A stretch of 64,000 nucleotides of DNA from an uncultured Myxococcales bacterium (GCA_964594295.1 CAZQPP010000001.1:5039-69038), one strand, 5' to 3'; positions 1-36,146 are shown, counted from the stretch's first letter. A program made the numbers and translations. The notes: generated from the letters alone by a model not told the origin.

Positions 1-1159
1 CCGCCTCCGTGTCCAGGTGCACCAGGCCGACAAGCGCGACCGGGTTCGGAAGGAACATCATGTTCCTCTGCCGCGGCAGGTCCTTGCCGTCTTCCTCGAA
101 AGAGCAGTGCAGCGACAGCAGCGCCGCCCCGCCCGACACCGCGACGTCCGGGAGGTGTCGCAGGCTTGCGTTCGGGAAGTCCGCCTTGACGCAGTCCTGG
201 AAGCTCGGCGTGTGGGTCGTCCCGCCCGTCATCACGACGTACTGGATCTCCTCCGCGCTCACGGAGGACTCCTCGAGGATATCGTCCCACAGCCTCTTGG
301 CGATCTTGTGCGTCGCCTGCACGAGCTCGTCGTAGCGTTTCCCGTCAAGGCGGAAGCGGAGGGCCTTGTCGGAGCCCGGCGTGAAGACTCTCGGGATCGT
401 GAACCAGGTCTCCGGGTCACGGCAGAGACCGCGCTTGGCCTGGTCGACCACCTCGAGGAGCTGAGCGAGGGAGGTCGGGTGCTTCACGTCGGCCAGCGTG
501 ATCCTGTTCTCCTCCAGCACGCGCAGGGCGGTCTGGAGGACCGTGAAGTCCATCGCGTTGCCCGCCATCAGGCCCTGCTCGCCGCCCTCGGCGAGGATGC
601 GCACCCCCTTTGAGGTGTTCCGGGCGACGGCGAAGCCAGAGCCGGAGTATCCCGCGGAGACCAGAGCTATGGTCGCTGTCTCTCGCCCCCCGATGTGGCG
701 CTCGCGGAAGAACTCGGCAGCCGCGGCGGCCTCGGAGCAGAGGGCGCACCTCTTGCCGGAGGAGGCCATCGCGTTGCGGAAGGCGCCGATGACGTGGCCG
801 TCGGCCCACATGGGGTAGGCGAGCATGACGCCGTCGGTCTCCCGGCTGCCGTACTGCTCGGCGCCCTCGATCGCCTCGGCGAGGAGGTTCGCGACGAGAT
901 CCCAGGTCTCCCACTTCTGCGCGCCGAGAGCTATCGCGAGGCCCCGCTCGAGCTGCTGGCAGAGGGAAGGGAAGAAGCGGCTGGCGTAGAGGTCCGCCGC
1001 CCGCGTCGGCAGCGAGATGGGGTAGTAGCGCTTCATCACCCGGAAGGTCTCCGGGACGTTCACGACGGTGCGCTCGCCGTCCGGGTACACGTAGGCAACG
1101 CGGGGGGAGCGGGAGCCGATGTCGATACCCAGGCGGATCGGCGTGTTCTCGTCCATCAT
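1..1159 (-). CDS. Hsp70-superfamily (actin-like fold) ATPase, second paralog. Partial: the C-terminus lies beyond the window start.
   Basis: Hand translation of the minus strand from ATG at 1159-1157 gives MMDENTPIRLGIDIGSRSPRVAYVYPDGERTVVNV... It carries Hsp70 nucleotide-binding-domain-like motifs: GIDIGS (phosphate-1), LVSAGYSGSGFAV (phosphate-2-like) and VVMTGGTTHTPSFQD (adenosine-motif-like). It is absent from the ORF track because there is no in-window stop. The start codon overlaps the stop of the upstream Hsp70 gene (ATGA at 1156-1159). The plus-strand ORF 17..613 in the track is its antisense shadow. Confidence 0.6.
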   Translation of the reverse strand, partial: MMDENTPIRLGIDIGSRSPRVAYVYPDGERTVVNVPETFRVMKRYYPISLPTRAADLYASRFFPSLCQQLERGLAIALGAQKWETWDLVANLLAEAIEGAEQYGSRETDGVMLAYPMWADGHVIGAFRNAMASSGKRCALCSEAAAAAEFFRERHIGGRETATIALVSAGYSGSGFAVARNTSKGVRILAEGGEQGLMAGNAMDFTVLQTALRVLEENRITLADVKHPTSLAQLLEVVDQAKRGLCRDPETWFTIPRVFTPGSDKALRFRLDGKRYDELVQATHKIAKRLWDDILEESSVSAEEIQYVVMTGGTTHTPSFQDCVKADFPNASLRHLPDVAVSGGAALLSLHCSFEEDGKDLPRQRNMMFLPNPVALVGLVHLDTEA

Positions 1160-3324
1160 GCTCCTCCCGTTCCGCGGACGATGAGAGCTTCGTCGTCCAG
1201 CATCTCTCCGCCGTGCTGCTGCTTGAACTCCTGGAAGGCCTTGTGCACGAGGTCCATCAGCCCCATGTGAGTGACCTCGACCTGCGGGTCGCCACGAGCC
1301 ACCTCATCGCGAAGCTGCTCGGCGGCCCTCCGGATCGCCGGCCCCAGCTGGCGGTCCTCCTGGGCTATGGTGTGCTCTGCGAGCCAGAGCGCAGACGCGA
1401 CCCCGCAGCCCGTGAGCATGGTCGAGTGGAGCGCCTGCATCACCTGCTTGGCCCCTTCCCGGTCCTCCCCGAGGGTCAGGTCCTGGGCGTGCCGGATGTG
1501 GTCGTTGAGCGTCTTGCGGGCGCCGGCATCCAGGAAGCTGTCGTATTCTTGCATGAAGCCCCGCGCGTGAGGGATGAACTCCGCGACCTGCCTGACCGGA
1601 TCGTCCTTTCTCCCGGCGGCGTCGGGCGGCTCGAGGCGCCAGGTGGGAGAAGCGCCGCTGCTCGACGTGGGGTAGTTCAACGATATGAGCAGCGTCCGGT
1701 CCCGGTCGTAGGTGAAGCAGACCTCCACGGGATCCCCGGCCTTCACGTCGGGTGGGATCTGGTCGATGGTGAGCATGGAGATCAGCGTGTTGTGAGAGGC
1801 CTTGGGCTGGTCTCCCTCGTAGATCAGGATCTGCATCCTGTCCTCGCGGGGGACCTGGAAGCGCTCCGAGCTCGTGACCGGGTACATCGTGCCTTCGCCC
1901 AGGATGGCCTGGTAGGCGTCCGTGTCGCTCCCTTTCCGGTAGGCGACGCCGAGGGAGCGGGGGATCGCGGCCGAGATCTCCTTGACCCCCGCAACATTGG
2001 CATCCATGTCGGATCTGGCGTTCAAGAGCTGCGCCCGGCAGTCCGGGTTCTGGCACTCTGCAGCTTCGAGAGGGTTTCGTGTCTCGCAGGCTTCGCACAC
2101 CAGGGCGTCGAGGCCCTGTGCGTACAGGGCGGCTCCCTTGGCCACCGCCTGCATCGGGTTGTAGGCGAGGCGCACGCGCCGCACTCCGTCGGTCTCGAAG
2201 ATGGACTGGAGGAGGATGCGCACGCGGTCTACCGCGCTGCTGCCCCCCACCATCAACACCTCGGTCAGGTTCTCGGGCTGCATGCCCTGCCTCGTCAGGA
2301 ACTCGGAGAGGATGCTGTGGATGCGAGCCTCTATGGGCTTCATGATCTTCTCGAAGTCACCCTGGGTCAGGACGAGCTCATCATCCTCCTCCTCGCACTT
2401 CTCCTGGAACCACCCACCGTCCCGGGTACGGACCGAGGGGATGTCCACGTAGACCTCGGCGGTCCCCGAGGAGAGGTTGTGCTTGGCTGCCCGGGCGCTC
2501 TCGCGCAGTCTCTGCAGGAGGTTGTGGTCGTCCGGCCCTACCTGCCCGCCTCGCTCCCGGATCCAGTCGACGACGTGGTCGAGGATGCGTTGATCGATCT
2601 CGTCTCCACCGAGGAAGTTGTCCCCGGTGTAGCCGAGGATCATCATGTCGCCTCCCGCGCGCTGCACGAGGGAGATGTCCAGGGTGCCCCCGCCGAAGTC
2701 GAAGACCAGGACCCGGGACTGCTCCTCCTTGGTGCCGGCGCCCTCCGACAGGGCCGCGGCGGTCGGCTCGTCGAAGACCGCGAGGACCTTCAGGCCGGCC
2801 AGCGCGCCCGCCTGCCGGGTTGCCTTCCGCTGGTGCTCGTGGAAGTAGGCGGGCACGGTGATCACGGCGTGAGTGACGGGCGCGCCCAGCCGGGCTTCGG
2901 CATCCTCCTTCAGCCTCCTCAAGACATGGGCCGAGATCTCCTCGGGAGCGGGCAGCGACTCGCCGAGCCTCACCACGACGCCGTGCCCGCCCGTCGGGTC
3001 CTCCTCGACACGGTAGCCTACCCGCTCCCGCGCGACCTGCACCTTCGGATCATTGAAGGAGAGCCCGACGAAGCGCTTGATCGAACGCACGGTGTTCCGT
3101 GGGTTGCGCTTCGCGTTGTTCTCGGCCTCCCGGCCGATCTGGACGGTCCTGTACGAGGCGCTGTCGACCCCCTTGGGCAGGGCGACGACCGACGGCGTGC
3201 TCTCCTCGTTGTCCGAGTTCGGCAGCACCCGCGCCTGCCCGGTCTCGTCGACGTGAGCTATCAGCGAGTTCGTCGTCCCGAGGTCGATGCCAACGCGCAG
3301 CGCGTTCGGAGTCGACTCAGCCAT
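1156..3324 (-). CDS. Hsp70-family chaperone paralog (DnaK-like NBD, Cys4 zinc-ribbon insert, SBD-like beta region and helical lid)
   Basis: ORF-track 722 aa. Canonical Hsp70 motifs are present: VGIDLGTTNSLIAHV, AVITVPAYFHEHQRKATRQAGALAGLKVLAVFDEPTAAAL and LVFDFGGGTLDISLV. The insert CEACETRNPLEAAECQNPDCRAQ (C-x2-C-x11-C-x4-C) follows the NBD. There is no EEVD tail. Confidence 0.85.
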   Translation of the reverse strand: MAESTPNALRVGIDLGTTNSLIAHVDETGQARVLPNSDNEESTPSVVALPKGVDSASYRTVQIGREAENNAKRNPRNTVRSIKRFVGLSFNDPKVQVARERVGYRVEEDPTGGHGVVVRLGESLPAPEEISAHVLRRLKEDAEARLGAPVTHAVITVPAYFHEHQRKATRQAGALAGLKVLAVFDEPTAAALSEGAGTKEEQSRVLVFDFGGGTLDISLVQRAGGDMMILGYTGDNFLGGDEIDQRILDHVVDWIRERGGQVGPDDHNLLQRLRESARAAKHNLSSGTAEVYVDIPSVRTRDGGWFQEKCEEEDDELVLTQGDFEKIMKPIEARIHSILSEFLTRQGMQPENLTEVLMVGGSSAVDRVRILLQSIFETDGVRRVRLAYNPMQAVAKGAALYAQGLDALVCEACETRNPLEAAECQNPDCRAQLLNARSDMDANVAGVKEISAAIPRSLGVAYRKGSDTDAYQAILGEGTMYPVTSSERFQVPREDRMQILIYEGDQPKASHNTLISMLTIDQIPPDVKAGDPVEVCFTYDRDRTLLISLNYPTSSSGASPTWRLEPPDAAGRKDDPVRQVAEFIPHARGFMQEYDSFLDAGARKTLNDHIRHAQDLTLGEDREGAKQVMQALHSTMLTGCGVASALWLAEHTIAQEDRQLGPAIRRAAEQLRDEVARGDPQVEVTHMGLMDLVHKAFQEFKQQHGGEMLDDEALIVRGTGGA

Positions 3325-3751
3325 TGTCCTGTTCCTCCTGCTTGTCCTTCTCCACGACGACGCGGGCCACTCGAAGCACCTTCCACTCCTTCTCTCCGAG
3401 GAGCTTCATCTCGTAGCCCCGGCGCAGGACCTCGAGGATGGTCCCTGGTGCCTCGCCCGACTCCCGCACCTCGTCGATCTTGTGGAAGCGAAGGTCCACC
3501 TGCCCGCCCGGGCACCCGAAGGGGCGCACACCGTGGGAGATGAAGGCCCGGTTCGCTCTCTCGATGGCCTTCGTCACGTTCTTGTGCTCGTCGCCGGTCG
3601 CTCTCCGCTGCCACTCCTCGAGCCAGTCGACGACCTCGATCACGGCGCCGACGAGGCTCTCGTGCTCCGCGAGCGCGCTCTTGATCAGGTCCTCGGGCGA
3701 CGGCCTCGCCATCACGCCGCGCATCTCCCTTGGGTTCAGCCTAGTCACCAT
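3317..3751 (-). CDS. GrpE-like nucleotide-exchange factor (short form), putative
   Basis: ORF-track 144 aa. The C-terminal segment RFHKIDEVRESGEAPGTILEVLRRGYEMKLLGEKEWKVLRVARVVV parallels the GrpE C-terminal signature FDPxxHQA...APGxVL..QKGYxL.GR.IR.AMVxV. It overlaps the Hsp70 start by 8 bp. The real start may be the internal Met (MRGVMARP...). Confidence 0.5.
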   Translation of the reverse strand: MVTRLNPREMRGVMARPSPEDLIKSALAEHESLVGAVIEVVDWLEEWQRRATGDEHKNVTKAIERANRAFISHGVRPFGCPGGQVDLRFHKIDEVRESGEAPGTILEVLRRGYEMKLLGEKEWKVLRVARVVVEKDKQEEQDNG

Positions 3752-4151
3752 TGTGCCTCCTATCCCCGAAAACCTCGGCGGGTGCGGGCAGCCGCGGAGC
3801 CCGGTCGGTCCACTCCTCTGCCGGGAGCGGCGGCGGCTCCTTCGCGAAGGCCTCTATGAGCTCGCGTGGCAGCCTCGCCCTCCAGCCGTCCACCTCCTGC
3901 ACGGAGGGCGCCTCTCGCGACAGCGCGCCGCAGAAGACCTCCAAGACGAGCCTCTGAGGCACCGATCGCAGAGCCCGCCACGCGCCGTGGACCGCCGGGT
4001 CGTTTCGGTCCGATCGGGTCATCTTGAAGCTGGCGTCGAGCACCTCGGTGTTCGAGCTGCTCGGGCCGACGCCGAGCCGCGCGAGGGCGACGAAAGGGTT
4101 GGGACCGTCCCACGGCAGCAGCGGATCGGCGAAGAGCTTCTCGTCGGCCAT
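3741..4151 (-). CDS. Small protein, possible degenerate J-domain-like co-chaperone (HPD replaced by NDP)
   Basis: ORF-track 136 aa. The segment LARLGVGPSSSNTEVLDASFKMTRSDRNDPAVHGAWRALRSVPQR has the spacing of a J-domain (YxxLGV..A..EIKKAYRKLA.KYHPDKN....AYEVLSD..R) but lacks the His-Pro-Asp triad. Its start shares one base with the CHAT gene stop (TGATG at 4149-4153). Confidence 0.35.
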   Translation of the reverse strand: MADEKLFADPLLPWDGPNPFVALARLGVGPSSSNTEVLDASFKMTRSDRNDPAVHGAWRALRSVPQRLVLEVFCGALSREAPSVQEVDGWRARLPRELIEAFAKEPPPLPAEEWTDRAPRLPAPAEVFGDRRHNGD

Positions 4152-7100
4152 CAGCCCTCCTTCACCGGAACCGGGACCAGGGTGGGACGCGCCTGGGTCC
4201 GCCGGCCTTGCATGAGGTCGCGCAGCCGCGACAGGTCGCTGCGCAGCTCCTGAACGGTTTTGTCATCGGGATTCAGATCCGGGTTGCGCTCCAGGAAGGA
4301 GTCCCCAACCTGGATCCCCTCGCCGCAAAGAAGCCTTGCCTCCTGGTGCTTCGACTCCTCCTTCAGCTCGATGCTGCGGATCGCAGAGATCTTCAAGAAG
4401 TTGCAGACGATGTGCGGCGTCTCGAGGGCGCGCACGGCGCTGCGGAGGAGGTCGTAGGCCTGCACGTGGCTCTTGTACGCGTTGGTTATGAAGATGGCGA
4501 CATCGGCCCGCAGCTTGGCCCACGCCCTCGTGACCACGGTGCTCCCCAGCGTCGCCGGGTGCCGGACCGACTCCAAAGCGCCCGCCAGGCGGCACGCGCG
4601 AACCAGCCTGCCCTCCAACGCCTCTCCATCCTTGTCGCCGGCGCCACCCTGCTTCTCCGCGTCGTACTCGCGAGTCGCCCCGATGGCCTTGTCGGCCCAC
4701 TCGCACAAAAGCCCCTCCACGTCACCGCCGCAGCTCACCCGCCTGCCCGCCAGTCGATAGCGGAGGGCCTCGAGGTAGGCGTCGAGGTCCTTGAGCTCTC
4801 GCAACGCCCTCTTTGCCGTCGAGAGCCGGGGTGTGCTGCGAGAGAGCTCTCGCCTGAGCTCCTCGAAGATCCGGCGGCCCGCCAGCATGGCTACGTGCGC
4901 GGAGAGCACGCGGCCCCGCTCTTCGTCCCGAAGGTTCGCGTGGAAAGGAAAGCGCTCGCCAAAGTCAGGTGCGTCGAGGAGCTCGTTGGCTCCTTCGCCC
5001 ACCTCCCCTTCCTCGAGCCGATCGGGGTCCGGCAGCAAGGACTTCGGGTCCTCTCCCCCCGTGCTCCCGAGGAGCGAGCCGAGCTCCGAGAATGAGAAGA
5101 CCAGGTCGTGGAAGGTCTCTACCGTCATGCGCTGGGCGAAGCGCACGTACTCGGCCTTCGACATCACGAGGAGCTCGGTGTAGACGCCGCTGAGCTCCTC
5201 GGCGACGGCGCCCAGGTAGCCGAGCCGGCGCGCAAGCTGGAAGCCCATGGCCGTCCCCCCGGGCACGGACTCGAGCGCGCTCGAGCTGCTCACGCCGAGC
5301 ATCTCCTGCTCGTCCAGGGCCCGCAAGCGGCGAACGAGCTCCAGGTCTCCCGTCCGGCTCTCGTGCTCCGCGAGGCAGTCGCCGAGGAGACCGGCCAGTC
5401 GGTCCTTGACCACCTCGACCAGCTCCCCGAGGTCGGCGGGGCGCGGCAAGCCGTAGACGTCGAAGCGCTGCCCGACCCAGGCGCGGACGCCGGACCTGCA
5501 ACCCCTCAGGGCGCCCAGGAGAGCGATGCACCGGTGGTAGAGGTCCTCGAAGAGCCCAGGATCGTCCGTGAGCGAGGCAGCGTGCAGGCAGATCAAGTAG
5601 GCTCCGCGAAGCCCCTCGAGCTGGACGAGGGGGCGCGTCGACTCCAGCGACGGGGCGACGCCGGCCCAGGCCTCTTCGACGGCCTCGCTGACCCTCCCTC
5701 CAGCCGCCAGCACCGCCACGCGGTCGGCGGGGGCGAGGCCCTCGAGGAGGGCGTCCGGCACGCACGTGGCGCCTTCCGCGACAGCCTCGAAGAGCGCTCG
5801 CAGCGCAGCGTTTGCGGCGGGTGGGTTCGTCGCCGGCAGGAAGGTGGCGTCTACCTCGAGCCGTGGCTTCGGCTTGCTCAGCCGGCGCAGAGAGCCTTGC
5901 TGCAGGCGCTTGGTGCGCGGAGAGTCGTGAGAAGGCGTCAGCTTCAGGATCTCCCCGGCGCTCATGCCGGGGTGGGCACCGGCCGCGGAGAGCACGAGGT
6001 AGTCGTGAGGAGCGTCGAGGGAGCGGCCGAGCTGGATCGGCGCCACCTCGTTGAGCATCACGGAGGCGAGCTCCGGCGGCAGGGAGGCGAGATCTGTCGC
6101 CTCCGAGTCGCTCGCCGGAGGTGCGGAGGCGAGGTAGGACTCCAGCCCGGCCAGGTCGTCGGGGATGTCTTGCCCGGCGCCGTCGGAGCTCCGCTCACCC
6201 GAGAGCCAGCGCAGCAGCTCCGCGCGCGCCCCGGGGAGCAGCAGCTCGGCGGACGGCCGGGAGGCTCCGCTCAGGCGCTCCAGGACCCGCGAGCGCAGGC
6301 TCTCGGTGAGGGCGGCCAGGCTCGCCTGGAGCCGATCGCGCTCCTCGTCGCTCAGCTTCGCCGCAGGCTCCGCCGACAAGAGAAGGTCCTCAGCGATGCG
6401 CAGGGCTCGCACGACCTCGGCCAGGTCCTCCGGCCCCTCCGCGTTGTCGATCTCTCTGCCTCGCTCCGCCAGCCACCCGCTCAGCTCTACGGCGTAGATC
6501 TCCCCGGCCAGGTCCGGCAGCGCCCCTCCGGGTTGCCCCGGCCCGAGCGAGCCGGCACGGACGAGCTTGGAGCACGCCTCGGGGAGCCTCGGCAGGGTAC
6601 CCGAGGACACGGCCGCGAGGTCTCCGAGAGCATCGACGCCCAGGGACACCGACTCGCTCAGGCGCCCGTGAAGCTCGCGCAGCAGCTCAACCTTGCGCCG
6701 TCCTCCGCGCGGATCGACGGCCACCGCCCCGGCGGTCCCGGGCAGGTCCGGGATGCGCTTGCTCCAGGCATCAAGCAGAGCGCTCCAGTTTCGCGCCGGC
6801 CGCGCGGCTTGGAGCTTGATGTCATCCTCGAGCTCGCCCAGGCTGGCCCGCAGCGCAGAGACACGGTCTGTCTCCTCAACGAGCTTCTTGGCACGCGCGG
6901 CGATGGGCGCCGACGGGCTGGACACGTAGCCCTTGAGGATCTGTAGAGCGCGCTTGGTGTTCCCCTCGTTCGCGAGCTGAATCGCCCTGTCGAAGACCTG
7001 CACGTCGCCTACGTCGAGGAGGGGAGGCAGGCTGGACGGGACGTACATGACGGGCAGGAACCACTCCGGCTCGCCGGCGAGGAAGAGCTCTTTGAGCGCG

Positions 7101-8053
7101 AGCCAGAAGGCGATCTCGGCGTGCCGGGCTCTTGGTCCCGATGGGTCGAGGAGGGCACGGTAGAAGTGCCGGAAGAAGGTCTGGAGCGTCTCGCGCTGCA
7201 TCCGGTCCACGAGCCCCACGACCCTGGCGCCCGGCAGGCGCCGGGCGATCTCGAAGGCGAGCGGGCTCGAGTGACACACCCCCAGCACTACGAGGCGCAC
7301 GTCCTTCAGAGCGGCCAGCCGCTCCGCGAGGACATGGTGCTGCACCGTGTTCGCGTGATCCTCCAGCCCGTGCAGCGACACCACATCGGGAGCGCGATAG
7401 CCGTGGGCCAGCACGTTGACGACGTGCCAGGTCGGGTCCTTGCCCGCCAGGGCCTCGAGCTGGGAGAGGGTGTCCTCTCCCTCGACGACCTTGTTGCAGG
7501 CTCCGGAGCCACCCAGGGCGCGGTGGGCGGCGCCGATCTCCTCCACTATGGGCTTGCAGTCGAAGCGTTCCAGCGGGGGGTCGCACGCGAGGGTCAGGGT
7601 CTTGAGAGGGCTCTTCTCCAGCTCGAGCACGGGTGCCGGCTCGCCGTGGACACCGCGCAGCAGCACACCGCCGGTCGAGACGAGCGGACGCTTCCGCTCG
7701 TCGATGGCGGCCTCCCACGCCACCTGCTCCAGATCCCGCCAGGCATCCTCCGCGGATCGGGGCGGGCGCAGCACGAAGGGGACCACGCCGTCCCCCTTCG
7801 GACGCCCTGCGATCGCGCAGGTCGAGGCGTGGATCCGGGCGCCGAGGCGGTGGAGGCGCTTCTGCTCGGTGGCCTTCAGGTCGCCGCACCACGCCAGCTC
7901 GGCCACGCTCGCGCTCTCCTCGCGGAGCTCATCGAGGTCGGCCTCGAGCAGCACCTCGAGCCCACGAACATCTCCCTCGTGGACCTCGTATACCGCCCAG
8001 CCGGGCCGGACTCGGCGAAGGACCAGCTCGACCGGCGACCCGAGCGCCTTCAT
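4151..8053 (-). CDS. CHAT-domain (caspase-like Cys protease) protein with a long C-terminal helical/TPR-like region
   Basis: ORF-track 1300 aa. The N-terminal ~330 aa carries the CHAT His/Cys dyad contexts HVVNVLAHGY and RLVVLGVCHSS. The rest is helical repeats. ATGA overlap with the upstream TPR gene at 8050-8053. Confidence 0.8.
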   Translation of the reverse strand: MKALGSPVELVLRRVRPGWAVYEVHEGDVRGLEVLLEADLDELREESASVAELAWCGDLKATEQKRLHRLGARIHASTCAIAGRPKGDGVVPFVLRPPRSAEDAWRDLEQVAWEAAIDERKRPLVSTGGVLLRGVHGEPAPVLELEKSPLKTLTLACDPPLERFDCKPIVEEIGAAHRALGGSGACNKVVEGEDTLSQLEALAGKDPTWHVVNVLAHGYRAPDVVSLHGLEDHANTVQHHVLAERLAALKDVRLVVLGVCHSSPLAFEIARRLPGARVVGLVDRMQRETLQTFFRHFYRALLDPSGPRARHAEIAFWLALKELFLAGEPEWFLPVMYVPSSLPPLLDVGDVQVFDRAIQLANEGNTKRALQILKGYVSSPSAPIAARAKKLVEETDRVSALRASLGELEDDIKLQAARPARNWSALLDAWSKRIPDLPGTAGAVAVDPRGGRRKVELLRELHGRLSESVSLGVDALGDLAAVSSGTLPRLPEACSKLVRAGSLGPGQPGGALPDLAGEIYAVELSGWLAERGREIDNAEGPEDLAEVVRALRIAEDLLLSAEPAAKLSDEERDRLQASLAALTESLRSRVLERLSGASRPSAELLLPGARAELLRWLSGERSSDGAGQDIPDDLAGLESYLASAPPASDSEATDLASLPPELASVMLNEVAPIQLGRSLDAPHDYLVLSAAGAHPGMSAGEILKLTPSHDSPRTKRLQQGSLRRLSKPKPRLEVDATFLPATNPPAANAALRALFEAVAEGATCVPDALLEGLAPADRVAVLAAGGRVSEAVEEAWAGVAPSLESTRPLVQLEGLRGAYLICLHAASLTDDPGLFEDLYHRCIALLGALRGCRSGVRAWVGQRFDVYGLPRPADLGELVEVVKDRLAGLLGDCLAEHESRTGDLELVRRLRALDEQEMLGVSSSSALESVPGGTAMGFQLARRLGYLGAVAEELSGVYTELLVMSKAEYVRFAQRMTVETFHDLVFSFSELGSLLGSTGGEDPKSLLPDPDRLEEGEVGEGANELLDAPDFGERFPFHANLRDEERGRVLSAHVAMLAGRRIFEELRRELSRSTPRLSTAKRALRELKDLDAYLEALRYRLAGRRVSCGGDVEGLLCEWADKAIGATREYDAEKQGGAGDKDGEALEGRLVRACRLAGALESVRHPATLGSTVVTRAWAKLRADVAIFITNAYKSHVQAYDLLRSAVRALETPHIVCNFLKISAIRSIELKEESKHQEARLLCGEGIQVGDSFLERNPDLNPDDKTVQELRSDLSRLRDLMQGRRTQARPTLVPVPVKEG

Positions 8054-10998
8054 TCGCTACCTCCCGGGCTGCCGTCCGCCCAAGCGATGTCCGAGCGCAC
8101 TCCGGCGATCAGAGGATGAGTGGGCGACCTGCGCGCGGCGATCTTCACGAGCTTCCTTGAGGTCATAAGGTGATCCTCGCCCTCGTCCACGCCATCTGAC
8201 ACCGCCCTCGCCAGGCACTGCGCGAGCACGAGGCACAGCGTGGAGTCCCGACGGGGGCTGAGAGCATACACGGTCTTCAGCAGCTCGGCAGCCTGGGCAT
8301 ACCTGCCCTTGAGCCTCAGGCGCAGCCCTTTGGCGAGCAGCTTGGAGACGGGGTCGTCGGCCTTCCACAGGGGCTTGTGGAGCTCCAGCTCGGCGTTCGC
8401 TATGCACAGCTCCGGCTCGTTCGGGTGGCGCGACACCGAGGTGGCCAGCGATCGGCGGAGCGCCTCGTAGGCCTCGAGGCCCACGGCGCCCGCATCGTGT
8501 CTCGGCCCTGCCGTCGCCGCCAGAGCGACAGCCACGGCGGCGCGCTGAACGAGCACCCGGGGATGGGTGGCGTGCTCTCCGAGCCCATCCAAGAGCGCGG
8601 CCGCCTCCTCGAACCGGCGCCCAGCCACCAGCTCACGGGCTCGTTCCAGCGCGCCGGTCGCCGCCGCCGGCGCCTCGGGGAGCCCCGGGGGCGGTGAGCT
8701 GCGGATCTCCACGACCTCCGAGAGGGGCACACCCCAGCCTACCACCTGAAGGGCTCGCTCGAGGTTCTTCACCTCCTCGTCGTCGCGCGCGCTGCGCTTG
8801 ATGCTCTTCACCGCCTCCCTCGCACGGTCCAGGAGCCTGTCCGCTTCCGCGGTGAGGCCGGCGTCCCTCGCCTCTTGGGCACACATGAGGAGGCTGAAGG
8901 TCCAGCTCGCCCCGGCCTGGGTGTCGTGCGGCTGCGCCCGCCACGCCGCCTGGTACTGGTCGGCCGCGTCCTGGTGACGACCGCTGTTGCCCAGCCGATA
9001 GCCGTAGCGCGCGAGGCTCCGGTGGTAGGTCGCCTCGAGACCGGGGATGCCGGTGTCGAGCGCCGTCTTCAGGAGACGCGTGGCCAGGGAGTCCGCGGCG
9101 AGAGAGTCGCGCTGCGCGAGCTGCTCGTCCTTCCCGATCAACAGCCTCGACAGGCGCTCCCGGGTCTCGGACTCCACGCCGAGGGCCACGGACTCACCGA
9201 TGGCCGCGCGCAGCATCTCGCTCACCTGCTCCACCTCGACGTCGGCGCTCAGGGAGGCCTTCAGGGCAGAGACTCCCACGTCCGAGCACAGGCGCGCGGC
9301 ATCCTGACGCAGGGCCTCCGCTGGGTCCGGCAAGCCGGCGAAGCCGAGGTTGAGGCGCTCGATCTCCGCTCGGTCCGCATCCGCTGGAGGCATGTACCGC
9401 ACGAACACGGCGAGGGCCGCGCGCCGGGCCGCCTCCCAGTTTCCGGCCGCGCGGTGGGCGTTGGCCAGGCTCAGCTCCGAGAACCAGCGGCGAAGGTCGG
9501 TGTCCTCCGCCACGCCCTCGTCGGGCAGGTCGATCCCGAACCTCCTGACGAGGGCGCGAAGGCGCTCGTCGGGCGGAGGCCTCCTCTCCTCCGAGGCGCT
9601 GTTCACGAAGTAGCTCCGGAGCTCCTCGAGCCCGGCGACTCTCTCGGCGAACAGAGGCCCGAAGCCGACGCGCGTTTTCCCCGCACCCGAAGACACCTGC
9701 GCCGCCTCGGCGTCCCAGACGGCCCGGGCGGCCATCAGCTCGCGGATCAGCTCGACGTGCAGCTCCGAGAGGGCCGCCGCCGCCTCCTCGTCCCCCCGGC
9801 CTTTGGCGTCGGCGATGGCGTTTGAGATCACTCGCTCAGCGTGCTGCTCGGCTCCCTGCCGGGTACCGTCGACGAAGCCGTCGTAGGGCTCGTCGCTCCC
9901 GTAGACCTTGAGCCGCTCCAGCACGAAGGCGCCCACCCAGCGGGGGTTTGCGAGGAACACCGACACGTGGGCGATGAAGTCCCGCCAGGCGTCGGCGTCA
10001 ACGGTGGGCAGCGAGCGGTGGGCCCGGATGAGCGCGAGGACGGCCAGGGTCCGTATGATGGTGGGGTTCCACGCGTCGGCGGCCTCCGCCTCGGCCAGCG
10101 CCTCGTATGCGCGGTCGTGGTCACCGCGGCGACCATACCAGGCGGCGACCTCCAGGTGATGCGCGTCGCGCGAGGGCGCGCTCGTCCCTATCCCCACCAG
10201 CCCGCCGACCAGGTTCCTGATCGAGGAGCAGTCGGCGTCTGCCGGATCGAGCACCGCGACGGCGTCCTCGAAGCGGCCGAGCAGGGAGAGCTCGCCGGCC
10301 AGCCTGTGCTGTAGCCACCGGCGGATGGGGGCACGATGACGCGCGCCCTCGAGCGCCGCGGCCAGGGCTGATGCCCGCTCGGCGCGGGTCGGGCGCGTCA
10401 TGGCCAGGAGCGCCCGATCCAGCCCCTCTCCGCTCTCCGAGAGGTGCCCGGCCGCGCGGCGTGCGGTGGAGATGTCTCCCTGCTTGAGAGCGCTCAGCGA
10501 GATCGCGCGCCACAGGTGGTCGACCTTCGGACGCGAAGGTGTGCCGATTCCAGGTTGCCGACCTTGCGTAGCAGGGCTTCCGTCCGGCGAGGCCGCGTCG
10601 TCTCGGGACGGCCCAGCCGATCCCGGCAAAGAGCCCTGGACAGGCTCCTGGCGACGGCGCGCAGCCTCGAGACCTTCGAGCGTCGTGGCTGCCTCGGACA
10701 AGCGGCCTTCCGCCACACACTCCTCACAGTGAGCGATCCGCGCCTGGTCCAGGGCAGGGCCGGCGGCTTTGGCCCCCGCGTCGCTCAGGTCCTCCCACGC
10801 CTCCAGGGCCTTCGCGTGCTGACCGGCCCTCCACAGCGCGAGGCCGGTCGCGTAGGCGGTCGCGTCCGAGCGCTCGTCAGATGCCAGGCCGGAGAGACAC
10901 TCGATCACGGCCAGCAGCTGTCCACCTTCGGCGCGAGCCGCGTCCTCGAGCAGCTCCACGATCTCGGGGTCTGTCGGCCAGGTGTGCGCGGCGCTCAT
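8050..10998 (-). CDS. TPR-repeat protein (~982 aa)
   Basis: The ORF track extends to 11403, but the first 135 residues are Arg/Gly/Pro-rich frame shadow overlapping the upstream gene. ATG at 10998-10996 (MSAAHTWPTDPEIVELLED...) overlaps the upstream stop TGA 10995-10997. The body is rich in TPR-like A/L/Y/W helical repeats (e.g. AYATGLALWRAGQHAKALEAWEDL). Confidence 0.7.
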   Translation of the reverse strand: MSAAHTWPTDPEIVELLEDAARAEGGQLLAVIECLSGLASDERSDATAYATGLALWRAGQHAKALEAWEDLSDAGAKAAGPALDQARIAHCEECVAEGRLSEAATTLEGLEAARRRQEPVQGSLPGSAGPSRDDAASPDGSPATQGRQPGIGTPSRPKVDHLWRAISLSALKQGDISTARRAAGHLSESGEGLDRALLAMTRPTRAERASALAAALEGARHRAPIRRWLQHRLAGELSLLGRFEDAVAVLDPADADCSSIRNLVGGLVGIGTSAPSRDAHHLEVAAWYGRRGDHDRAYEALAEAEAADAWNPTIIRTLAVLALIRAHRSLPTVDADAWRDFIAHVSVFLANPRWVGAFVLERLKVYGSDEPYDGFVDGTRQGAEQHAERVISNAIADAKGRGDEEAAAALSELHVELIRELMAARAVWDAEAAQVSSGAGKTRVGFGPLFAERVAGLEELRSYFVNSASEERRPPPDERLRALVRRFGIDLPDEGVAEDTDLRRWFSELSLANAHRAAGNWEAARRAALAVFVRYMPPADADRAEIERLNLGFAGLPDPAEALRQDAARLCSDVGVSALKASLSADVEVEQVSEMLRAAIGESVALGVESETRERLSRLLIGKDEQLAQRDSLAADSLATRLLKTALDTGIPGLEATYHRSLARYGYRLGNSGRHQDAADQYQAAWRAQPHDTQAGASWTFSLLMCAQEARDAGLTAEADRLLDRAREAVKSIKRSARDDEEVKNLERALQVVGWGVPLSEVVEIRSSPPPGLPEAPAAATGALERARELVAGRRFEEAAALLDGLGEHATHPRVLVQRAAVAVALAATAGPRHDAGAVGLEAYEALRRSLATSVSRHPNEPELCIANAELELHKPLWKADDPVSKLLAKGLRLRLKGRYAQAAELLKTVYALSPRRDSTLCLVLAQCLARAVSDGVDEGEDHLMTSRKLVKIAARRSPTHPLIAGVRSDIAWADGSPGGSE

Positions 10999-13400
10999 CG
11001 GAACAACAGCCTCGTCTGCCACATCCACGTCTCGCCTCCGCTGAGGCGGAGGGTCTTCGTCCCGTCGCCAAGGTCGAGGGACGCCGCGTCCGCGCCCGCG
11101 ATCCGGGAACCCGGTTGCTCGGAGGGCCGGGCGCCGGGGTCGAGCGTCACCCCCGCCGCTACCCCATCTCTCCACAATGGCGGTGCCGTGTCCCGGGCGG
11201 TGACCAGCAGCGAGATCAGCCACGCGCTGGTTTGCTCCGGGTGCTCCTCGCGGAGGGCCTGGCCGTCGGGGAAGGATGTCCAGCGGCCCTGCTCGATTCG
11301 GAGGCCCTTCCGCGGGTGACCCAGCGCTCCGAATCCGTCGACCTCCCGGACCACCCCGTCGCGGTCCAGAGCGGCCACGAGCAACAGGGCGTGGCACCTG
11401 CACGTGGGGCGAACGAGCACCTTGACCATCCGTCCCCGCTCGACGCTGGCGCCCGGAGCGACGCCCTCGAAGCCGTCACCCGAACCTACGGCGAGGGCGA
11501 CGTCGACCGCCGCGCCTGTCGTCTCCACGTCCCCGACGCCATCGCCGGGATCGATCCGGCTCCCCCTCAGCAGGTCCAAGGCCGCCGGCGCCGAGGGGCG
11601 CTTGGTCGGCTTCTTCGCTCCGAGCCTCTGGAGCAGAGGGCCGAGCGGCGGAGGCAAGCCCGCTCCGGGGCCACGGGCAGTCTCGGTTGGTCCCCTGGCG
11701 GGCATCTTCGGGACCTTGCCGGTCGCCAGGAAGTGCATCGCCGCGGCCAGGCTGTAGACGTCGGCCGCCGTGCTCCGGCGGCGTTTGGACGTGAGCTCGG
11801 GGGCGGCGAAGCGGCAATGCGGCAAGGCCCGGGCCGTCGTGCCGGCCTGCGCCAGGGCGAGGCCGAGATCGGCGAAGGACGCCCGCCCGTCCTCCGAGAC
11901 GAAGACATCACCGGGGGAGAGAGAGCCCCACGTGAGCTCCCCGTCGTGGAGCCTGGCGAGACCCTCGAGCAGATCCTCCAGCCACCGCAGGACCTCGGCA
12001 CATGAGGCCCGGCCGGCGCGCTCTAGCGCGCAGCCTCCGGAGACGTCGTCGAGGAGCACGAAGAGACCTCCCAGGCCGTCTTCGCCAGGCAAGGCGTGCA
12101 CCAGCTCCGGAATGCTCGACACTCCCAGGTCGGTGTTTGCTCGAACACGCGCATCCAAGGCCTCCGGGTCGAGGGCGCTCCGGTCGAGGAGGCGGACCAC
12201 GACCCTTCGGCGGCGCAGGTTCGCGTCGACCACGCGCCAGGCGCGGACATCGGGGTCGTCGCGGAGGGTGGCGCCCACCTCGAAGTGTGCTCCGAGCGAC
12301 TGCGCCACCTCGTGGGGCACTGCCAGGTCTGCGCAATCGGGCCCCAGCTCGCATATCCCGATGCTCCGCCTCCAATCACGGAGCCAGTCCTCGAAGGAGC
12401 GCGCCTCGTTCCCCCCGGCGGCGTCGCCGGGCCGGGTGCCGTGCTCGTCGTGCTTCGACACGTGGTCACGAACCTCCACGTAGTCGAGGGGCTTGCCGGC
12501 ATTCCAGAAGAGGAGAGACCTCTCGCCGCCTCCGCTGTCTCGGCCGTCATCCACCCTGAGCAGCAGGCCGACAGGCAGGGCCTTGGTCGCGGAAGGGTCC
12601 AAGATGTACACGCGACCGGGGCGCAGCCCGGCGGTCTCCGGCCAACGCAGCTGTGTCGCCGCCTTGGCGGCGAGGCTCTCGCTGCCGACCAGCAGTCGGA
12701 TGCGCCCCTCGAGGCGATCGTCGTGCTTGCCGAACCTGATCTCGTCCACCACGAAGGGGCGGTACGCTCTAAGCCAGCGGAGAGACTGGAGCGTGGCCTT
12801 GAGCGCGGCGGCGAAGCCCTCGACGTAGAGACGCCGGGGTTCTCCTCTCAGCGGCGGGTCGTGACTCCACGTGTTCCGGAGCTGCACCAGCAGGTCGAGC
12901 TGGTCGTGTCCTGATACGCTGCGCCCCTCCTCGTTGAGCACCGCGTCGTGGAACATCCACCGCGGCGCCTCGGGGACGAAGGCATCGGGCCTGGCCTGGA
13001 GCGACGTGGCGAGGTTCCGCAGCAGGCCCAGCAGCTTGCCGAGGAGCGGTTTCCGCAGGTCGACCCAGCTCGCCTCGACCTCCTCCGAGGGTGCTCCTCG
13101 CAAGTAGTCCGGGAGGAGCGTGACCAGCAAGGTTCGCAGCAGGACCTCCACGGCCCCCACGAGTGACTCTGCCTGTGCCTCGGGAGCTCCGTTCCCGGTG
13201 ACAATGACGTCCCGGACCGCGACCGCCAGGGGCATTGGCAGGGCAGCGACAAGTGCCTTGTCTCGTCCTGGATCCCAAGCTGGCATCGTCTTCGGCAGCC
13301 CCAAGAATAGCGCATGGGTGTTGGCGTGCGGACTATATCGGCCGAGGCGGATCGGCACCAGCGGCGCCACTTGCCGGAGCCGGGTGCCGGCCCTGACCAC
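10995..13400 (-). CDS. HEPN-like (RNxxxH) N-terminal domain fused to a degenerate Ser/Thr kinase-like (pseudokinase) domain plus a C-terminal region of unknown fold
   Basis: ORF-track 801 aa from GTG 13400. The likelier start is ATG 13286 (MPAWDPG...), which has a TATAGT -10-like hexamer upstream. The N-terminal ~250 aa is paralogous to the N-terminus of the 36147 protein (shared LLPDYLRGAP and LVQLRNTWSHD versus LIELRNEDAHG, i.e. an R-x4-H motif). The kinase region has DLG and APE-like motifs, but the HRDLKPxN box reads WGSLSPGDV, so the catalytic Asp and Lys are lost. Confidence 0.7.
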   Translation of the reverse strand: MVRAGTRLRQVAPLVPIRLGRYSPHANTHALFLGLPKTMPAWDPGRDKALVAALPMPLAVAVRDVIVTGNGAPEAQAESLVGAVEVLLRTLLVTLLPDYLRGAPSEEVEASWVDLRKPLLGKLLGLLRNLATSLQARPDAFVPEAPRWMFHDAVLNEEGRSVSGHDQLDLLVQLRNTWSHDPPLRGEPRRLYVEGFAAALKATLQSLRWLRAYRPFVVDEIRFGKHDDRLEGRIRLLVGSESLAAKAATQLRWPETAGLRPGRVYILDPSATKALPVGLLLRVDDGRDSGGGERSLLFWNAGKPLDYVEVRDHVSKHDEHGTRPGDAAGGNEARSFEDWLRDWRRSIGICELGPDCADLAVPHEVAQSLGAHFEVGATLRDDPDVRAWRVVDANLRRRRVVVRLLDRSALDPEALDARVRANTDLGVSSIPELVHALPGEDGLGGLFVLLDDVSGGCALERAGRASCAEVLRWLEDLLEGLARLHDGELTWGSLSPGDVFVSEDGRASFADLGLALAQAGTTARALPHCRFAAPELTSKRRRSTAADVYSLAAAMHFLATGKVPKMPARGPTETARGPGAGLPPPLGPLLQRLGAKKPTKRPSAPAALDLLRGSRIDPGDGVGDVETTGAAVDVALAVGSGDGFEGVAPGASVERGRMVKVLVRPTCRCHALLLVAALDRDGVVREVDGFGALGHPRKGLRIEQGRWTSFPDGQALREEHPEQTSAWLISLLVTARDTAPPLWRDGVAAGVTLDPGARPSEQPGSRIAGADAASLDLGDGTKTLRLSGGETWMWQTRLLFR
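13332..13337 (-). promoter_or_regulatory. -10-like hexamer TATAGT (minus strand) upstream of the probable ATG 13286 start of the seven-gene operon
   Basis: The minus-strand sequence cggccgaTATAGTccgcacgcc lies ~46 nt upstream of ATG 13286. There is no convincing -35. Confidence 0.25.
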
Positions 13401-13539
13401 TGACTCCGTGGCACCCCGCGGATGCTCCGCCGGGAAGGGCTCGATCTGTCCGAGAGACGATCAGACCGCCTTGCCGGTGTGGATCTGACCGGGACCTCGA
13501 GCGAAGGCTGCCGGTAGGCTCAGCCATTCGCACGGCCGA

Positions 13540-13556
13540 TGGACAGCAACTGTCCA
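13540..13556. promoter_or_regulatory. Perfect 7-bp inverted repeat TGGACAG-caa-CTGTCCA upstream of the operon, candidate regulator binding site
   Basis: Read directly at 13540-13556, in the 300-bp gap between the SGNH hydrolase gene end (13703) and the operon start. Confidence 0.25.
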
Positions 13557-13702
13557 CGAGCGCTCACAGCTTCCCGGGCGGCGCTCGCTCCCCGATCTCG
13601 AGCTCCTCGATCGCCAGGGCCGGCGTCAGCGCCAGGATGTCGTCGTCGTCGGTGCCGATGCCGGTGTCGAGGATGACTCGGTTCTTCTGCGAGAGACCGG
13701 CA

Positions 13703-15019
13703 TCAGGGTGCCTCGAGCGACAGCCCGGAGTCCTTCAAGAGCGCTGCGAGCAGCACCTCTGCGAGCCTCTCGTAGCCGCGCCGGGTGAAGTGCACGTGGT
13801 CCGGCGCCGCCATCGGCGGCTTCGCCTTCACCCACGACGGCATGGACATCGGGCCCCCTTGAAAGGCGACCAGATCGAAGAAGCCGCAGCCGGCTTCGGC
13901 GCTGACCTCGCGCTGGACCGCGATGATATCCTGGGTGCGCTGCCGGGGTAGCCAGGTGCCCTTCTTGCCCTTGATCGGCCTGTCGGAGGGGCCGATCAGC
14001 AGGCACGAGGCCTCCGGCACGACCTGGCGGATTCGGGCTACCACGAGGCGCAGGTCCTTCTCGTACCTTGGGATCGGCACGTTCTTGTCACCGGACTCGT
14101 TGGTGCCGTAGGCGAGGACCACGAGGTCGGGGCGGCGCCATGCGAGCTGCGCGCGGTAGAGGCGATCGTTCCAGAGCAGGTGGTATCGCGCTCTCGAACC
14201 GCGAATGCCGAGGGTGTCGACGACGACGCCAGGCTCGTCTCTCTCGAGGACCAGGCCGAAGAGGCGGATGAGCCCGTCCCCGAGGGGGCGCACCTCGAAG
14301 CTGTGTTCGCCGTCGTCCACGTCCATGAACATGAAGCCCGGCTTCACCTCGTCGGCCCTGGTGTTCAAGCGGTACACAGGATTCCCGTCGATGCTCACGT
14401 CGAGCTGCCCGCCGGGCGGGCCGCGCAGGTAGAGGAGCGCGTAGCGGCTCACCTTCCGGCCGACGGGGCTCTTTTTCGGCGTCACCACTCGGCCGAAGTC
14501 CTCCTTCGAGCTCGACTCCACCGTAACGCCCGCCATGCCGAAGTAGCCCACGGTCTTGCTCGACGCCCCCACTTGAAAGCTGCGCCAACCGCCGGAGCTG
14601 CTGACTTCGACATCGAGGTGCCGGTAGTACTGCCAGGGCTTGACCGGCATCACGAAGCCGTGACCCGCGTCGCCGAAACGTTGCTGAAGCTTGCGCCGGA
14701 TGTGGCCGGTGAACCAATCCGTCGAGGTGTGTGAGGCACCGAAGAAGAGGAGGCGAGCCTTTCCCGCTCCGGCGGATGCGCGCCAGAGAGCGCGGTGGAG
14801 GTTGTGCAGGGCTCGGCCGGAGGGGTCCTTGATGGGGATCTCGACGCCGAGGACCGGCTGCTCGGCGGCGGAGGCCTTTCGCGAGGGCCCGGCGGCCGCG
14901 GCGTGCGTTGACGGTGTGAGGACGAGGAAGAGGAGCAACGAGGTCACGACGGCGGTCGCCGTTCTCCCCGACGCCGCGGTCCACGGTCTGCTCCGGTTCA
15001 ACGATACGTCGCGTAACAT
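13703..15019 (-). CDS. Secreted SGNH/GDSL-family hydrolase
   Basis: ORF-track 438 aa. N-terminal signal-peptide-like stretch (AVVTSLLLFLVLTPSTHAAAAG). SGNH blocks FFGASHTS (I), AYGTNESG (III) and DHVHF (V). Confidence 0.75.
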   Translation of the reverse strand: MLRDVSLNRSRPWTAASGRTATAVVTSLLLFLVLTPSTHAAAAGPSRKASAAEQPVLGVEIPIKDPSGRALHNLHRALWRASAGAGKARLLFFGASHTSTDWFTGHIRRKLQQRFGDAGHGFVMPVKPWQYYRHLDVEVSSSGGWRSFQVGASSKTVGYFGMAGVTVESSSKEDFGRVVTPKKSPVGRKVSRYALLYLRGPPGGQLDVSIDGNPVYRLNTRADEVKPGFMFMDVDDGEHSFEVRPLGDGLIRLFGLVLERDEPGVVVDTLGIRGSRARYHLLWNDRLYRAQLAWRRPDLVVLAYGTNESGDKNVPIPRYEKDLRLVVARIRQVVPEASCLLIGPSDRPIKGKKGTWLPRQRTQDIIAVQREVSAEAGCGFFDLVAFQGGPMSMPSWVKAKPPMAAPDHVHFTRRGYERLAEVLLAALLKDSGLSLEAP

Positions 15020-21150: not shown

Positions 21151-21255
21151 GGCGTGACGTGCAAGGTGGCCACGCCGGACCCTGCTGGCAGCTCCTCACA
21201 CGGAGCGCACGTCGGAAGCGCTGCAGGACACCTGAGACCGGCCCAACGAGCCGAA

Positions 21256-36086: not shown

Positions 36087-36146
36087 GCGCCGGCGACTTC
36101 GGCTGCGCTCTCCCGCGGTAGTCCCCCTTCGAGGGCCTGTGCCATA

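Follow-up and report, generated by a model that had tools for sequence, protein, structure and literature searches.

The 64,000-nucleotide stretch analysed here, which we call the window, comes from an uncultured Myxococcales bacterium (GCA_964594295.1 CAZQPP010000001.1:5039-69038), and all positions are counted from its first letter. Its left end carries a tightly packed string of minus-strand genes that encodes, in order of transcription, a kinase-like protein, a TPR-like protein, a protein of 1300 amino acids (aa), two small proteins of 136 and 144 aa, an Hsp70, and a second Hsp70-like protein. Our subject is the pair of small open reading frames (ORFs) immediately upstream of the Hsp70 gene, which an earlier reading of this DNA (the original prediction) had taken for a minimal GrpE and a J-domain without the HPD tripeptide. 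The genes of this operon, and the parts of them that matter for the argument, are the following, where NBD and SBD stand for the nucleotide-binding and substrate-binding domains of Hsp70, respectively.

10995-13400, minus strand: protein of 801 aa that occupies the operon's variable first slot and has a kinase-like domain (Pfam Pkinase match at 2.4e-7, just under the cut-off; PADLOC PD-T4-6 kinase models up to 3.8e-15).
8050-10401, minus strand: large TPR-like protein, 783 aa by the public (JGI) gene call (weak TPR matches; a gene lies in the same slot of related operons).
4151-8053, minus strand: divergent protease-like protein of the CHAT family, 1300 aa long, whose C-terminal part is made of helical repeats (hhalign to CHAT-positive relatives).
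5828-6007, minus strand: putative divergent J-like segment within the CHAT protein at residues ~683-742 (HDYLVLSAAGAHP...LRRLSKPKPRLEVDATFL), placed by orthologue alignment only.
3741-4151, minus strand: 136-aa J-like protein, hereafter p136, in which a J-like domain is followed by a linker, a short conserved helix, and an acidic tail (ORF, coding signals, family, and AlphaFold2 model).
3927-4130, minus strand: predicted J-like domain of p136, residues ~8-75, without HPD (AlphaFold2, hhalign register, and conservation).
3840-3866, minus strand: predicted conserved C-terminal helix of p136, residues 96-104, in the "PLPWxLLxxLA" motif of the close clade (AlphaFold2 and alignment conservation).
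3317-3751, minus strand: 144-aa minimal GrpE-like protein, a putative nucleotide-exchange factor (Pfam GrpE match and hhalign to Escherichia coli GrpE).
3347-3661, minus strand: GrpE-homologous core of the 144-aa protein, residues 31-135, with two bundle helices and the beta-sheet domain (Pfam match).
1156-3324, minus strand: 722-aa atypical Hsp70 with NBD, Cys4 zinc-ribbon insertion, SBD-beta, and helical C-terminus (Pfam HSP70 at 1.4e-97).
1-1159, minus strand: second Hsp70 paralogue, NBD-only; the window's left end truncates its gene, which is whole on contig L001 (9682-11091) and encodes 469 aa there.

Both small ORFs are confirmed as real genes. The peptides quoted for them in the original prediction, which had placed them within a CHAT/Hsp70 operon, are present in both, and coding signals and independent gene calls agree. 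The guanine and cytosine (GC) contents at the three codon positions are 0.72/0.52/0.87 for the 136-aa ORF and 0.68/0.39/0.90 for the 144-aa ORF; their third-position values resemble those of the flanking Hsp70 and CHAT genes, whereas ORFs that overlap them in alternative frames have values of 0.42-0.82. Each is preceded by a GGAGG-type ribosome-binding site, and the starts overlap the ends of the preceding genes, by 1 nt between the 136-aa ORF and the CHAT stop, 11 nt between the 144-aa ORF and the end of the 136-aa ORF, and 8 nt between Hsp70 and the end of the 144-aa ORF. On three other contigs, the JGI and ENA gene callers report identical products of 136 and 144 aa, and the same public gene calls add the remainder of the operon, namely the 469-aa NBD-only Hsp70 and two YbjN-like proteins.

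Related operons were gathered by look-ups of Hsp70 orthologues together with a scan of species-representative genomes, which gave 14 operons in all; the genome scan, carried out with a sub-region of the Hsp70, contributed 4-5 true orthologues among 78 loci. The 14 operons come from Planctomycetota, Acidobacteriota (Terracidiphilus), an alphaproteobacterial metagenome-assembled genome, Streptomyces, and metagenomes; in Streptomyces cacaoi, the J-like protein is WP_030881885 and the GrpE-like protein WP_030881883. In all 14, the genes for the J-like protein, the GrpE-like protein, and Hsp70 lie side by side, and a hidden Markov model (HMM) of the J-like domain detects the free J-like protein in every one of them. 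The same HMM has no match in ~75 other Hsp70 loci, canonical grpE-dnaK operons included, and none of the 14 loci contains a canonical J-domain gene. The full gene order, [TIR/DUF4062/kinase]-[~1000-aa TPR]-[1300-1900-aa CHAT]-[J-like]-[GrpE-like]-[Hsp70]-[NBD-only Hsp70]-[YbjN x2], is found in the window/L001 and in L005-L008. The remaining loci share the core of CHAT, J-like, GrpE-like, Hsp70, and second Hsp70 genes, with flanks that vary or are ended by the contig. The first slot of the operon is occupied by TIR or DUF4062 genes in L005, L006, and L007 and by the kinase-like gene in the window.

It should be mentioned that one copy of the operon, in L004, carries an insertion sequence element (helix-turn-helix and DDE_3 transposase genes, 7029-8573) between the CHAT and J-like genes, and that its J-like ORF starts within the domain (124 aa, beginning MRRFGITPDS). 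Because of the insertion and this internal start, the L004 copy is probably disrupted.

On profile evidence, the 144-aa protein is a truncated GrpE, in which the bundle helices and the beta-domain are kept and the disordered N-terminus and the long helix are gone. Its match to Pfam PF01025 scores 35 bits (gathering score, 25.8; E = 1.5e-8) and covers positions 61-165 of the 165-position profile, and a profile of seven orthologues aligns co-linearly with residues 91-196 of E. coli GrpE in hhalign (96% probability, E = 4.4e-9). These results bear out the minimal GrpE of the original prediction. They also reproduce its by-eye alignment with the C-terminus of E. coli GrpE, although the string quoted there as KFDPNVHQAI actually reads PLDPNVHQAI. 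The residues D42, G74, D86, H90, G112, Y113, R127, and V131 are invariant in the seven orthologues, and the invariant positions match E. coli D100, G138, D150, H154, G177, Y178, and R186. A word-indexed homologue search with the 144-aa protein returned only the query itself; the Streptomyces orthologue is already labelled "nucleotide exchange factor GrpE" by NCBI. The 144-aa protein is not an orthologue of the housekeeping GrpE, as its best NCBIfam score is 21.7 bits against an equivalog cut-off of 194.

The seven orthologues are 141-173 aa long, and their alignment starts at E. coli residue ~91. None of them has a counterpart of the E. coli region before residue ~88, which comprises the disordered tail and the greater part of the long paired helix, and in the 144-aa protein only ~30 residues precede the four-helix-bundle region. 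In other words, the bundle helices and the C-terminal beta-sheet domain are homologous to those of canonical bacterial GrpE (PF01025; E. coli GrpE, PDB 1DKG), whose gene likewise lies directly upstream of an Hsp70 gene, whereas ~88 N-terminal residues are missing; and canonical GrpE serves DnaK, whereas the 144-aa protein goes with an atypical Hsp70. In the structure of the Mycobacterium tuberculosis DnaK-GrpE complex, the beta-sheet domain is the main DnaK contact, opening the nucleotide cleft and driving nucleotide release, whereas the long helix and the N-terminal tail contact NBD lobes IA and IIA and the SBD and are required for substrate release and refolding (PMC10803776). The bundle helices and the beta-sheet domain make up contact region I, which touches NBD lobes IB and IIB, and the long helix and tail make up regions II and III. 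Set against these roles, the truncation suggests that the 144-aa protein keeps the exchange module without the coupling module. Because the cleft-opening part of GrpE is retained, the protein is most likely still an ADP/ATP exchange factor.

The 136-aa protein is a harder case. Scans of p136 against Pfam, NCBIfam, and PADLOC gave no match, and a word-indexed homologue search found only p136 itself. An exhaustive search of 1.84 billion representatives, however, recovered a family of 74 clusters at E<=1e-3, which public records label only "hypothetical protein". The conservation counts given below were taken over 58 aligned family members. The conserved part of the family spans residues ~8-75, with the consensus DPxxPWxGxxPYxxLAxxGxTPxSxxxEVLDASFxL...AWxxLRxxxxRLxVDFFxY; R67 is invariant, and Y20, P30, W58, L61, R62, and D71 are each present in at least 56 of the 58 members.

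The C-termini of this family show a pattern of their own. About a quarter of the members terminate exactly in hydrophobic-x-F-D-R (LIRFDR, IVEFDR, LIEFDR, and similar), the C-terminus of the window's p136 (3741-3790) reads EVFGDR plus five more residues, and another subclade has acidic tails of the E-[DE]-R type. This C-terminal motif could serve in docking, with either the TPR protein or the substrate site of the Hsp70 as its target.

The assignment of p136 to the J-domains is mainly structural, because Pfam is negative and the profile-profile signal is weak. With the 58-sequence alignment, AlphaFold2 predicts p136 with a predicted local distance difference test (pLDDT) score of 85.3 overall and 94-98 over residues 20-70; from the single sequence, the pLDDT is 44. 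The predicted helices cover residues 19-22, 34-43, 46-50, 52-62, 64-73, and 96-104, and the model shows the four-helix fold with an antiparallel helix II/III hairpin that characterizes J-domains. When the model was compared by Foldseek with 350,542 chains, J-domain entries made up 33 of the 41 top matches, including the DnaK-bound J-domain 5nro_B. In hhalign, the family profile aligned with 11 J and J-like reference sequences, 10 of which match PF00226, at 55.9% probability (P = 1.1e-4), a value under the usual acceptance level. The register was identical against 26 J-domains extracted from the fetched loci (35%, P = 3.9e-4), whereas the reversed profile and 60 column-shuffled profiles reached at most 2.7%. 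In this register, EVLDASF of p136 lies on helix II of DnaJ (EIRKAYKRL), and A57, W58, L61, R67, and E/D71 lie on DnaJ A53, Y54, L57, R63, and D67 of the helix III/IV core; the most conserved residues of the p136 family thus coincide with core positions of the J-domain. On the basis of the model, we consider it quite likely that p136 is a degenerate J-domain.

Several points weigh against this assignment. It leans on one AlphaFold model, and all of the Foldseek E-values exceed 0.1 (0.15-3). A search with the DnaJ profile, which had been proposed as a check of the original prediction, fails at the Pfam level: PF00226 matches 0 of the 58 family members even at E<=10. A search of PDB sequences with the family profile retrieves no J-protein, and the hhalign probability to J-domains is only 35-56% (P = 1e-4 to 4e-4). 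The PDB matches that phmmer and hmmsearch did produce for p136 (G6PD, ribosomal L15, and a Cpl-7-type lysozyme repeat on PYxxLAxxGxxP) were rejected as spurious and due to chance. The missing HMM-level match and the weak Foldseek E-values would also suit a small helical bundle unrelated to J-domains, with a convergent fold, such as a homotypic adaptor domain of the sort common in conflict systems; that the domain also occurs within an effector protein (see below), as adaptor domains often do, speaks for the same explanation. We nevertheless judge it very unlikely that p136 is such a bundle. The structural matches are nearly all J-domains among both 48,164 and 350,542 chains, the profile alignment is co-linear, exceeds all controls, and places the invariant residues on core positions of the J-domain, and the gene stands next to those for GrpE and Hsp70 in all 14 operons.

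If p136 is a J-domain, it is one whose HPD loop is, by alignment, deleted and not mutated. An HPD tripeptide occurs in a single member of the 58, at residue 25, a non-equivalent site. DnaJ residues H33-E44, which include the end of helix II, the HPD, and the start of helix III, fall in a gap of the p136 alignment, so that the tip of the hairpin is ~12 residues shorter. The original prediction had the catalytic HPD reading NDP in this protein. This equivalence is not supported: N50-D51-P52 stands at the start of predicted helix III, opposite DnaJ K46-F47-K48 and not H33-P34-D35, and these columns are poorly conserved in the family (N variable, D in 21/58, P in 32/58). It is the gap over the HPD region, together with the different position and poor conservation of N50-D51-P52, that indicates deletion rather than mutation. 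Helix II of p136 is acidic (consensus E36, D39, and D/E43), not basic as in J-domains. Compared with the J-domain of DnaJ/Hsp40 (PF00226; DnaK-J complex, PDB 5NRO), p136 therefore shares the predicted four-helix arrangement, the core positions, and the linkage to Hsp70 and GrpE, and it differs in having no HPD, a shorter hairpin tip, an acidic helix II, and an extra conserved N-terminal DPxxPWxG motif. Of the earlier claim of a J-domain without HPD, the predicted fold and the absence of the tripeptide stand.

The partner Hsp70 has also changed. We aligned the 722-aa protein, together with the 26 relatives closest to it, to E. coli DnaK. All retain the equivalents of D8, the G10-N13 loop, K70, E171, D194, T199, and D201. 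The position of DnaK R167, in contrast, is Ala in 25 of these 27 proteins, a Cys-rich Cys4 zinc-ribbon insertion replaces the DVLLLD linker, and the acidic patch of lobe IIa (equivalents of E206, D208, E209, and E217) is lost, along with a five-residue deletion; Arg is often present at the position equivalent to 207. In DnaK, R167 is an allosteric hub that contacts D35 of the HPD, with which it forms the established trigger pair, D393 of the linker, and D481 of the SBD, and R167H suppresses DnaJ D35N; the basic helix II of the J-domain faces the acidic IIa patch of the NBD, and the HPD is reported to be both invariant and critical to the stimulation (PMC7289447). Because p136 has no HPD and the Hsp70 has no R167, the canonical HPD-R167 trigger is, as judged from the alignments, missing on both partners in the window's clade.

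A working J-protein could still be envisaged, in which p136 triggers hydrolysis by way of another loop, for example the D/T-P of residues 51-52, which is partly conserved, or by contacts of helix III, fitted to a re-engineered Hsp70 interface. The interfaces between J-domains and Hsp70 are variable and co-evolve (PMC7289447), all of the catalytic residues of the Hsp70 are kept, and the acidic helix II, facing a IIa patch that has no acids and often has Arg at 207, would make a possible charge swap. We think this unlikely, however, given that the HPD is reported to be invariant and critical to stimulation (PMC7289447), that the D-P pair is conserved in only 36% and 55% of the family, that the hairpin tip is shorter, and that R167 and the linker are absent in this clade.

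The second, NBD-only Hsp70 does not conserve the equivalents of K70, D194, T199, and D201, in an alignment that is itself uncertain; its gene is kept in every operon, and the protein may be a pseudo-ATPase. Outside these operons, L009 encodes a close Hsp70 relative (P0010, 9001-12537) with 45% identity and an N-terminal TIR fusion, and this gene is solitary, without J-like, GrpE-like, or CHAT neighbours.

The 1300-aa protein upstream of p136 has no Pfam CHAT (PF12770) match, and BLASTP against CHAT proteins is not significant. However, its N-terminal 420 residues align with Pfam-CHAT-positive relatives in hhalign (99.85% probability, E = 1e-30), and AHG and VCHSS fall in register with the CHAT His and Cys. 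By this comparison, the protein is a divergent member of the CHAT family, with its caspase-like fold and His/Cys dyad. A second J-like domain appears to lie inside this protein. The J-like HMM matches an internal segment of the CHAT protein in eight operons, namely L014 (1e-23), L013 (1.5e-22), L010 (2.6e-17), L019 (3.7e-11), L006 (1.4e-5), L005 (1.2e-4), L016 (4.6e-4), and L007 (7e-4), and two proteins of this kind, P0179 and P0180, came up directly in the p136 search and carry Pfam CHAT. The HMM misses the segment in the CHAT protein of the window, where it is recognizable solely through orthologue alignment. These internal copies, too, are without a conserved HPD. The GHPDP found at near-canonical helix II spacing in the internal domain of L006 and L016 was considered as a catalytic HPD and rejected, since it occurs in one lineage only; the same site reads SHDSP in the window, EERDP in L005, EETDE in L007, and ALADG in L008. 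From these alignments, each system holds two HPD-less J-like modules, one of them embedded in the protease itself.

The presence of two related J-type domains recalls the Pam16-type J-like proteins, which also have a J-type fold without the catalytic tripeptide, tether or organize Hsp70 and do not stimulate it, and act in a system whose two J-type domains could pair, as p136 and the CHAT-internal domain are candidates to do here. The Pam16-type proteins are, however, eukaryotic or organellar, and the partner of Pam16 has an HPD, whereas the system described here is bacterial and both of its copies are without HPD; no sequence-level relationship of p136 to Pam16 was detected. Taken strictly, this likeness would make p136 a Pam16-like regulator that forms a heterodimer with the CHAT-internal J-like domain, holding the Hsp70 off the protease or fixing the protease to the chaperone without itself binding Hsp70. 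We find this strict form doubtful: with no HPD in either J-like domain, p136 would be left without an active J partner to act on, it matches Tim14/16 less well than ordinary J-domains, and the CHAT-internal domain is weakly conserved in the window's clade, to the point that the HMM misses the window's copy.

These observations lead us, with somewhat more confidence than doubt, to a reading in which the two small proteins are dedicated co-chaperones of the atypical Hsp70, within a CHAT-protease/TPR operon of conflict type, and in which p136 is an adaptor rather than a stimulator. The GrpE-like protein, as a dimer, would reset the Hsp70 through ADP/ATP exchange without acting on the SBD. p136 would retain helices I-IV, with the HPD-bearing tip of the helix II/III hairpin deleted, and it would probably not fire the Hsp70 ATPase in the canonical way, because its HPD is gone and the Hsp70 is without the Arg167 hub and the hydrophobic linker. 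It would tether or organize the Hsp70 pair with the CHAT and TPR proteins, and it may pair with the J-like domain inside the CHAT protein, as in Pam16-Pam18 (PMC3237618). The whole module would then gate the protease, TIR, or kinase effector. The missing HPD, the acidic helix II, the Ala at the R167 position of the Hsp70, and the J-like domain within the CHAT protein are all consistent with the adaptor role, and the recruitment rather than stimulation proposed in the original prediction is plausible.

On the other side, the loss of R167 is not universal. An actinobacterial and planctomycete clade (L010 from Streptomyces, together with L013 and L014) has K/R at position 167, and its J-like proteins are without HPD all the same; because these three loci keep K/R, the argument from co-loss is limited to the window's clade. 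The long helix of canonical GrpE is required in vitro for chaperone function (PMC10803776), so that a GrpE without its tail might act only weakly or be used in another way.

How does this operon compare with systems already described? The HSP70-GrpE theme of the GAP1-N2 GTPase-centric conflict systems, described by Kaur, Burroughs, Iyer, and Aravind in 2020 (PMC7159879), combines a full Hsp70, a dedicated GrpE, an Hsp70-domain-only protein, and TPR proteins in multicellular-type bacteria, and the same gene set is found here. There are, however, clear differences. The J-domain of that theme is a recognizable DnaJ domain fused to an FNIII protein, whereas here it is a free protein without HPD, and an HPD-less J component is not mentioned in PMC7159879. 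The theme includes GTPase and FNIII genes, whereas the operon encodes neither in the window or in L001, and GTPases stand beside L013 only. In addition, the operon described here has a CHAT gene plus a TIR, DUF4062, or kinase gene in the effector slot, and two YbjN genes downstream. The second point of comparison is a survey of myxobacterial "DnaK derivates" (FEBS J 2026, PMC13580251), Hsp70 paralogues in which the linkers are altered or absent and the SBDs modified. According to this survey, bacteria, and myxobacteria especially, have many such derivates, and their function and their binding to J-domains and GrpE are listed as open questions. The survey reports no dedicated co-chaperones, whereas the operon described here offers candidate GrpE-like and J-like partners.

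Beyond the operon, the window holds further genes of the kinds found in conflict systems. On the minus strand at 16313-25164, a vWA protein (CobT_C VWA), a 990-aa dynein-type AAA_5 (MoxR-like) ATPase, and a 1302-aa HEAT-repeat protein are encoded in a row, a trio that resembles the MoxR-vWA "ternary" conflict systems. On the plus strand at 32043-39911, adjoining genes encode two giant proteins, one with TIR, NPHP3_N (STAND NTPase), and WD40 domains and the other with protein kinase and WD40 domains. In L013, the GAP1-N2/GAP1-M and DO-GTPase2 genes (12301-14379) stand back-to-back with the orthologous CHAT/J-like/GrpE/Hsp70 operon, which ties the operon to the HSP70-GrpE theme of Kaur et al. 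(PMC7159879). With the two giant proteins and the Hsp70 operon, the window resembles a conflict or immunity island, and the neighbourhood, in which the MoxR/vWA/HEAT trio, the TIR-STAND-WD40 and kinase-WD40 proteins, and the adjacency in L013 all point the same way, supports a conflict-system role for the operon. It should also be mentioned that the TPR gene within the operon has two candidate starts: its longest frame (1117 aa, with a GTG start, to 11403) would overlap the end of the kinase-like gene by ~400 nt, and the public call places the start later (783 aa).

One can speculate further that the operon encodes a self-contained, non-canonical Hsp70 cycle, with neither an HPD-R167 trigger nor linker docking, which would arm a CHAT-protease/TIR immune complex; p136 and the J-like domain of the protease would act as a Pam16/Pam18-style pair that fastens the Hsp70 to the protease, and the system would be fired by the binding of a client, for example a phage protein, and not by J-stimulation. 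We offer this as a tentative picture that is more probably wrong than right in its entirety.

Parts of this system are already known, namely the dedicated Hsp70-GrpE-(DnaJ) conflict modules (PMC7159879), the HPD-less J-like proteins of eukaryotes, and the GrpE label in the databases. Our literature searches turned up no published description of this operon type or of the J-like family. What appears to be new is the bacterial HPD-less J-like family itself (74 clusters, publicly annotated only as hypothetical), its obligatory association with a GrpE that has no tail and an Hsp70 that has neither R167 nor the linker, and the duplication of the J-like domain inside a CHAT protease.

For one lineage of Hsp70 derivates, then, the operon provides private co-chaperones that can be tested: a GrpE exchange module and what is probably a remnant of a J-domain without its catalytic loop. 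They accompany an Hsp70 that appears itself to have lost its own side of the canonical trigger, which bears directly on the question left open in the survey of the myxobacterial derivates (PMC13580251). Because these genes are linked to CHAT, TIR, and kinase effectors in a conflict-rich region, they may show how the Hsp70 cycle has been reused as a switch in bacterial immunity.

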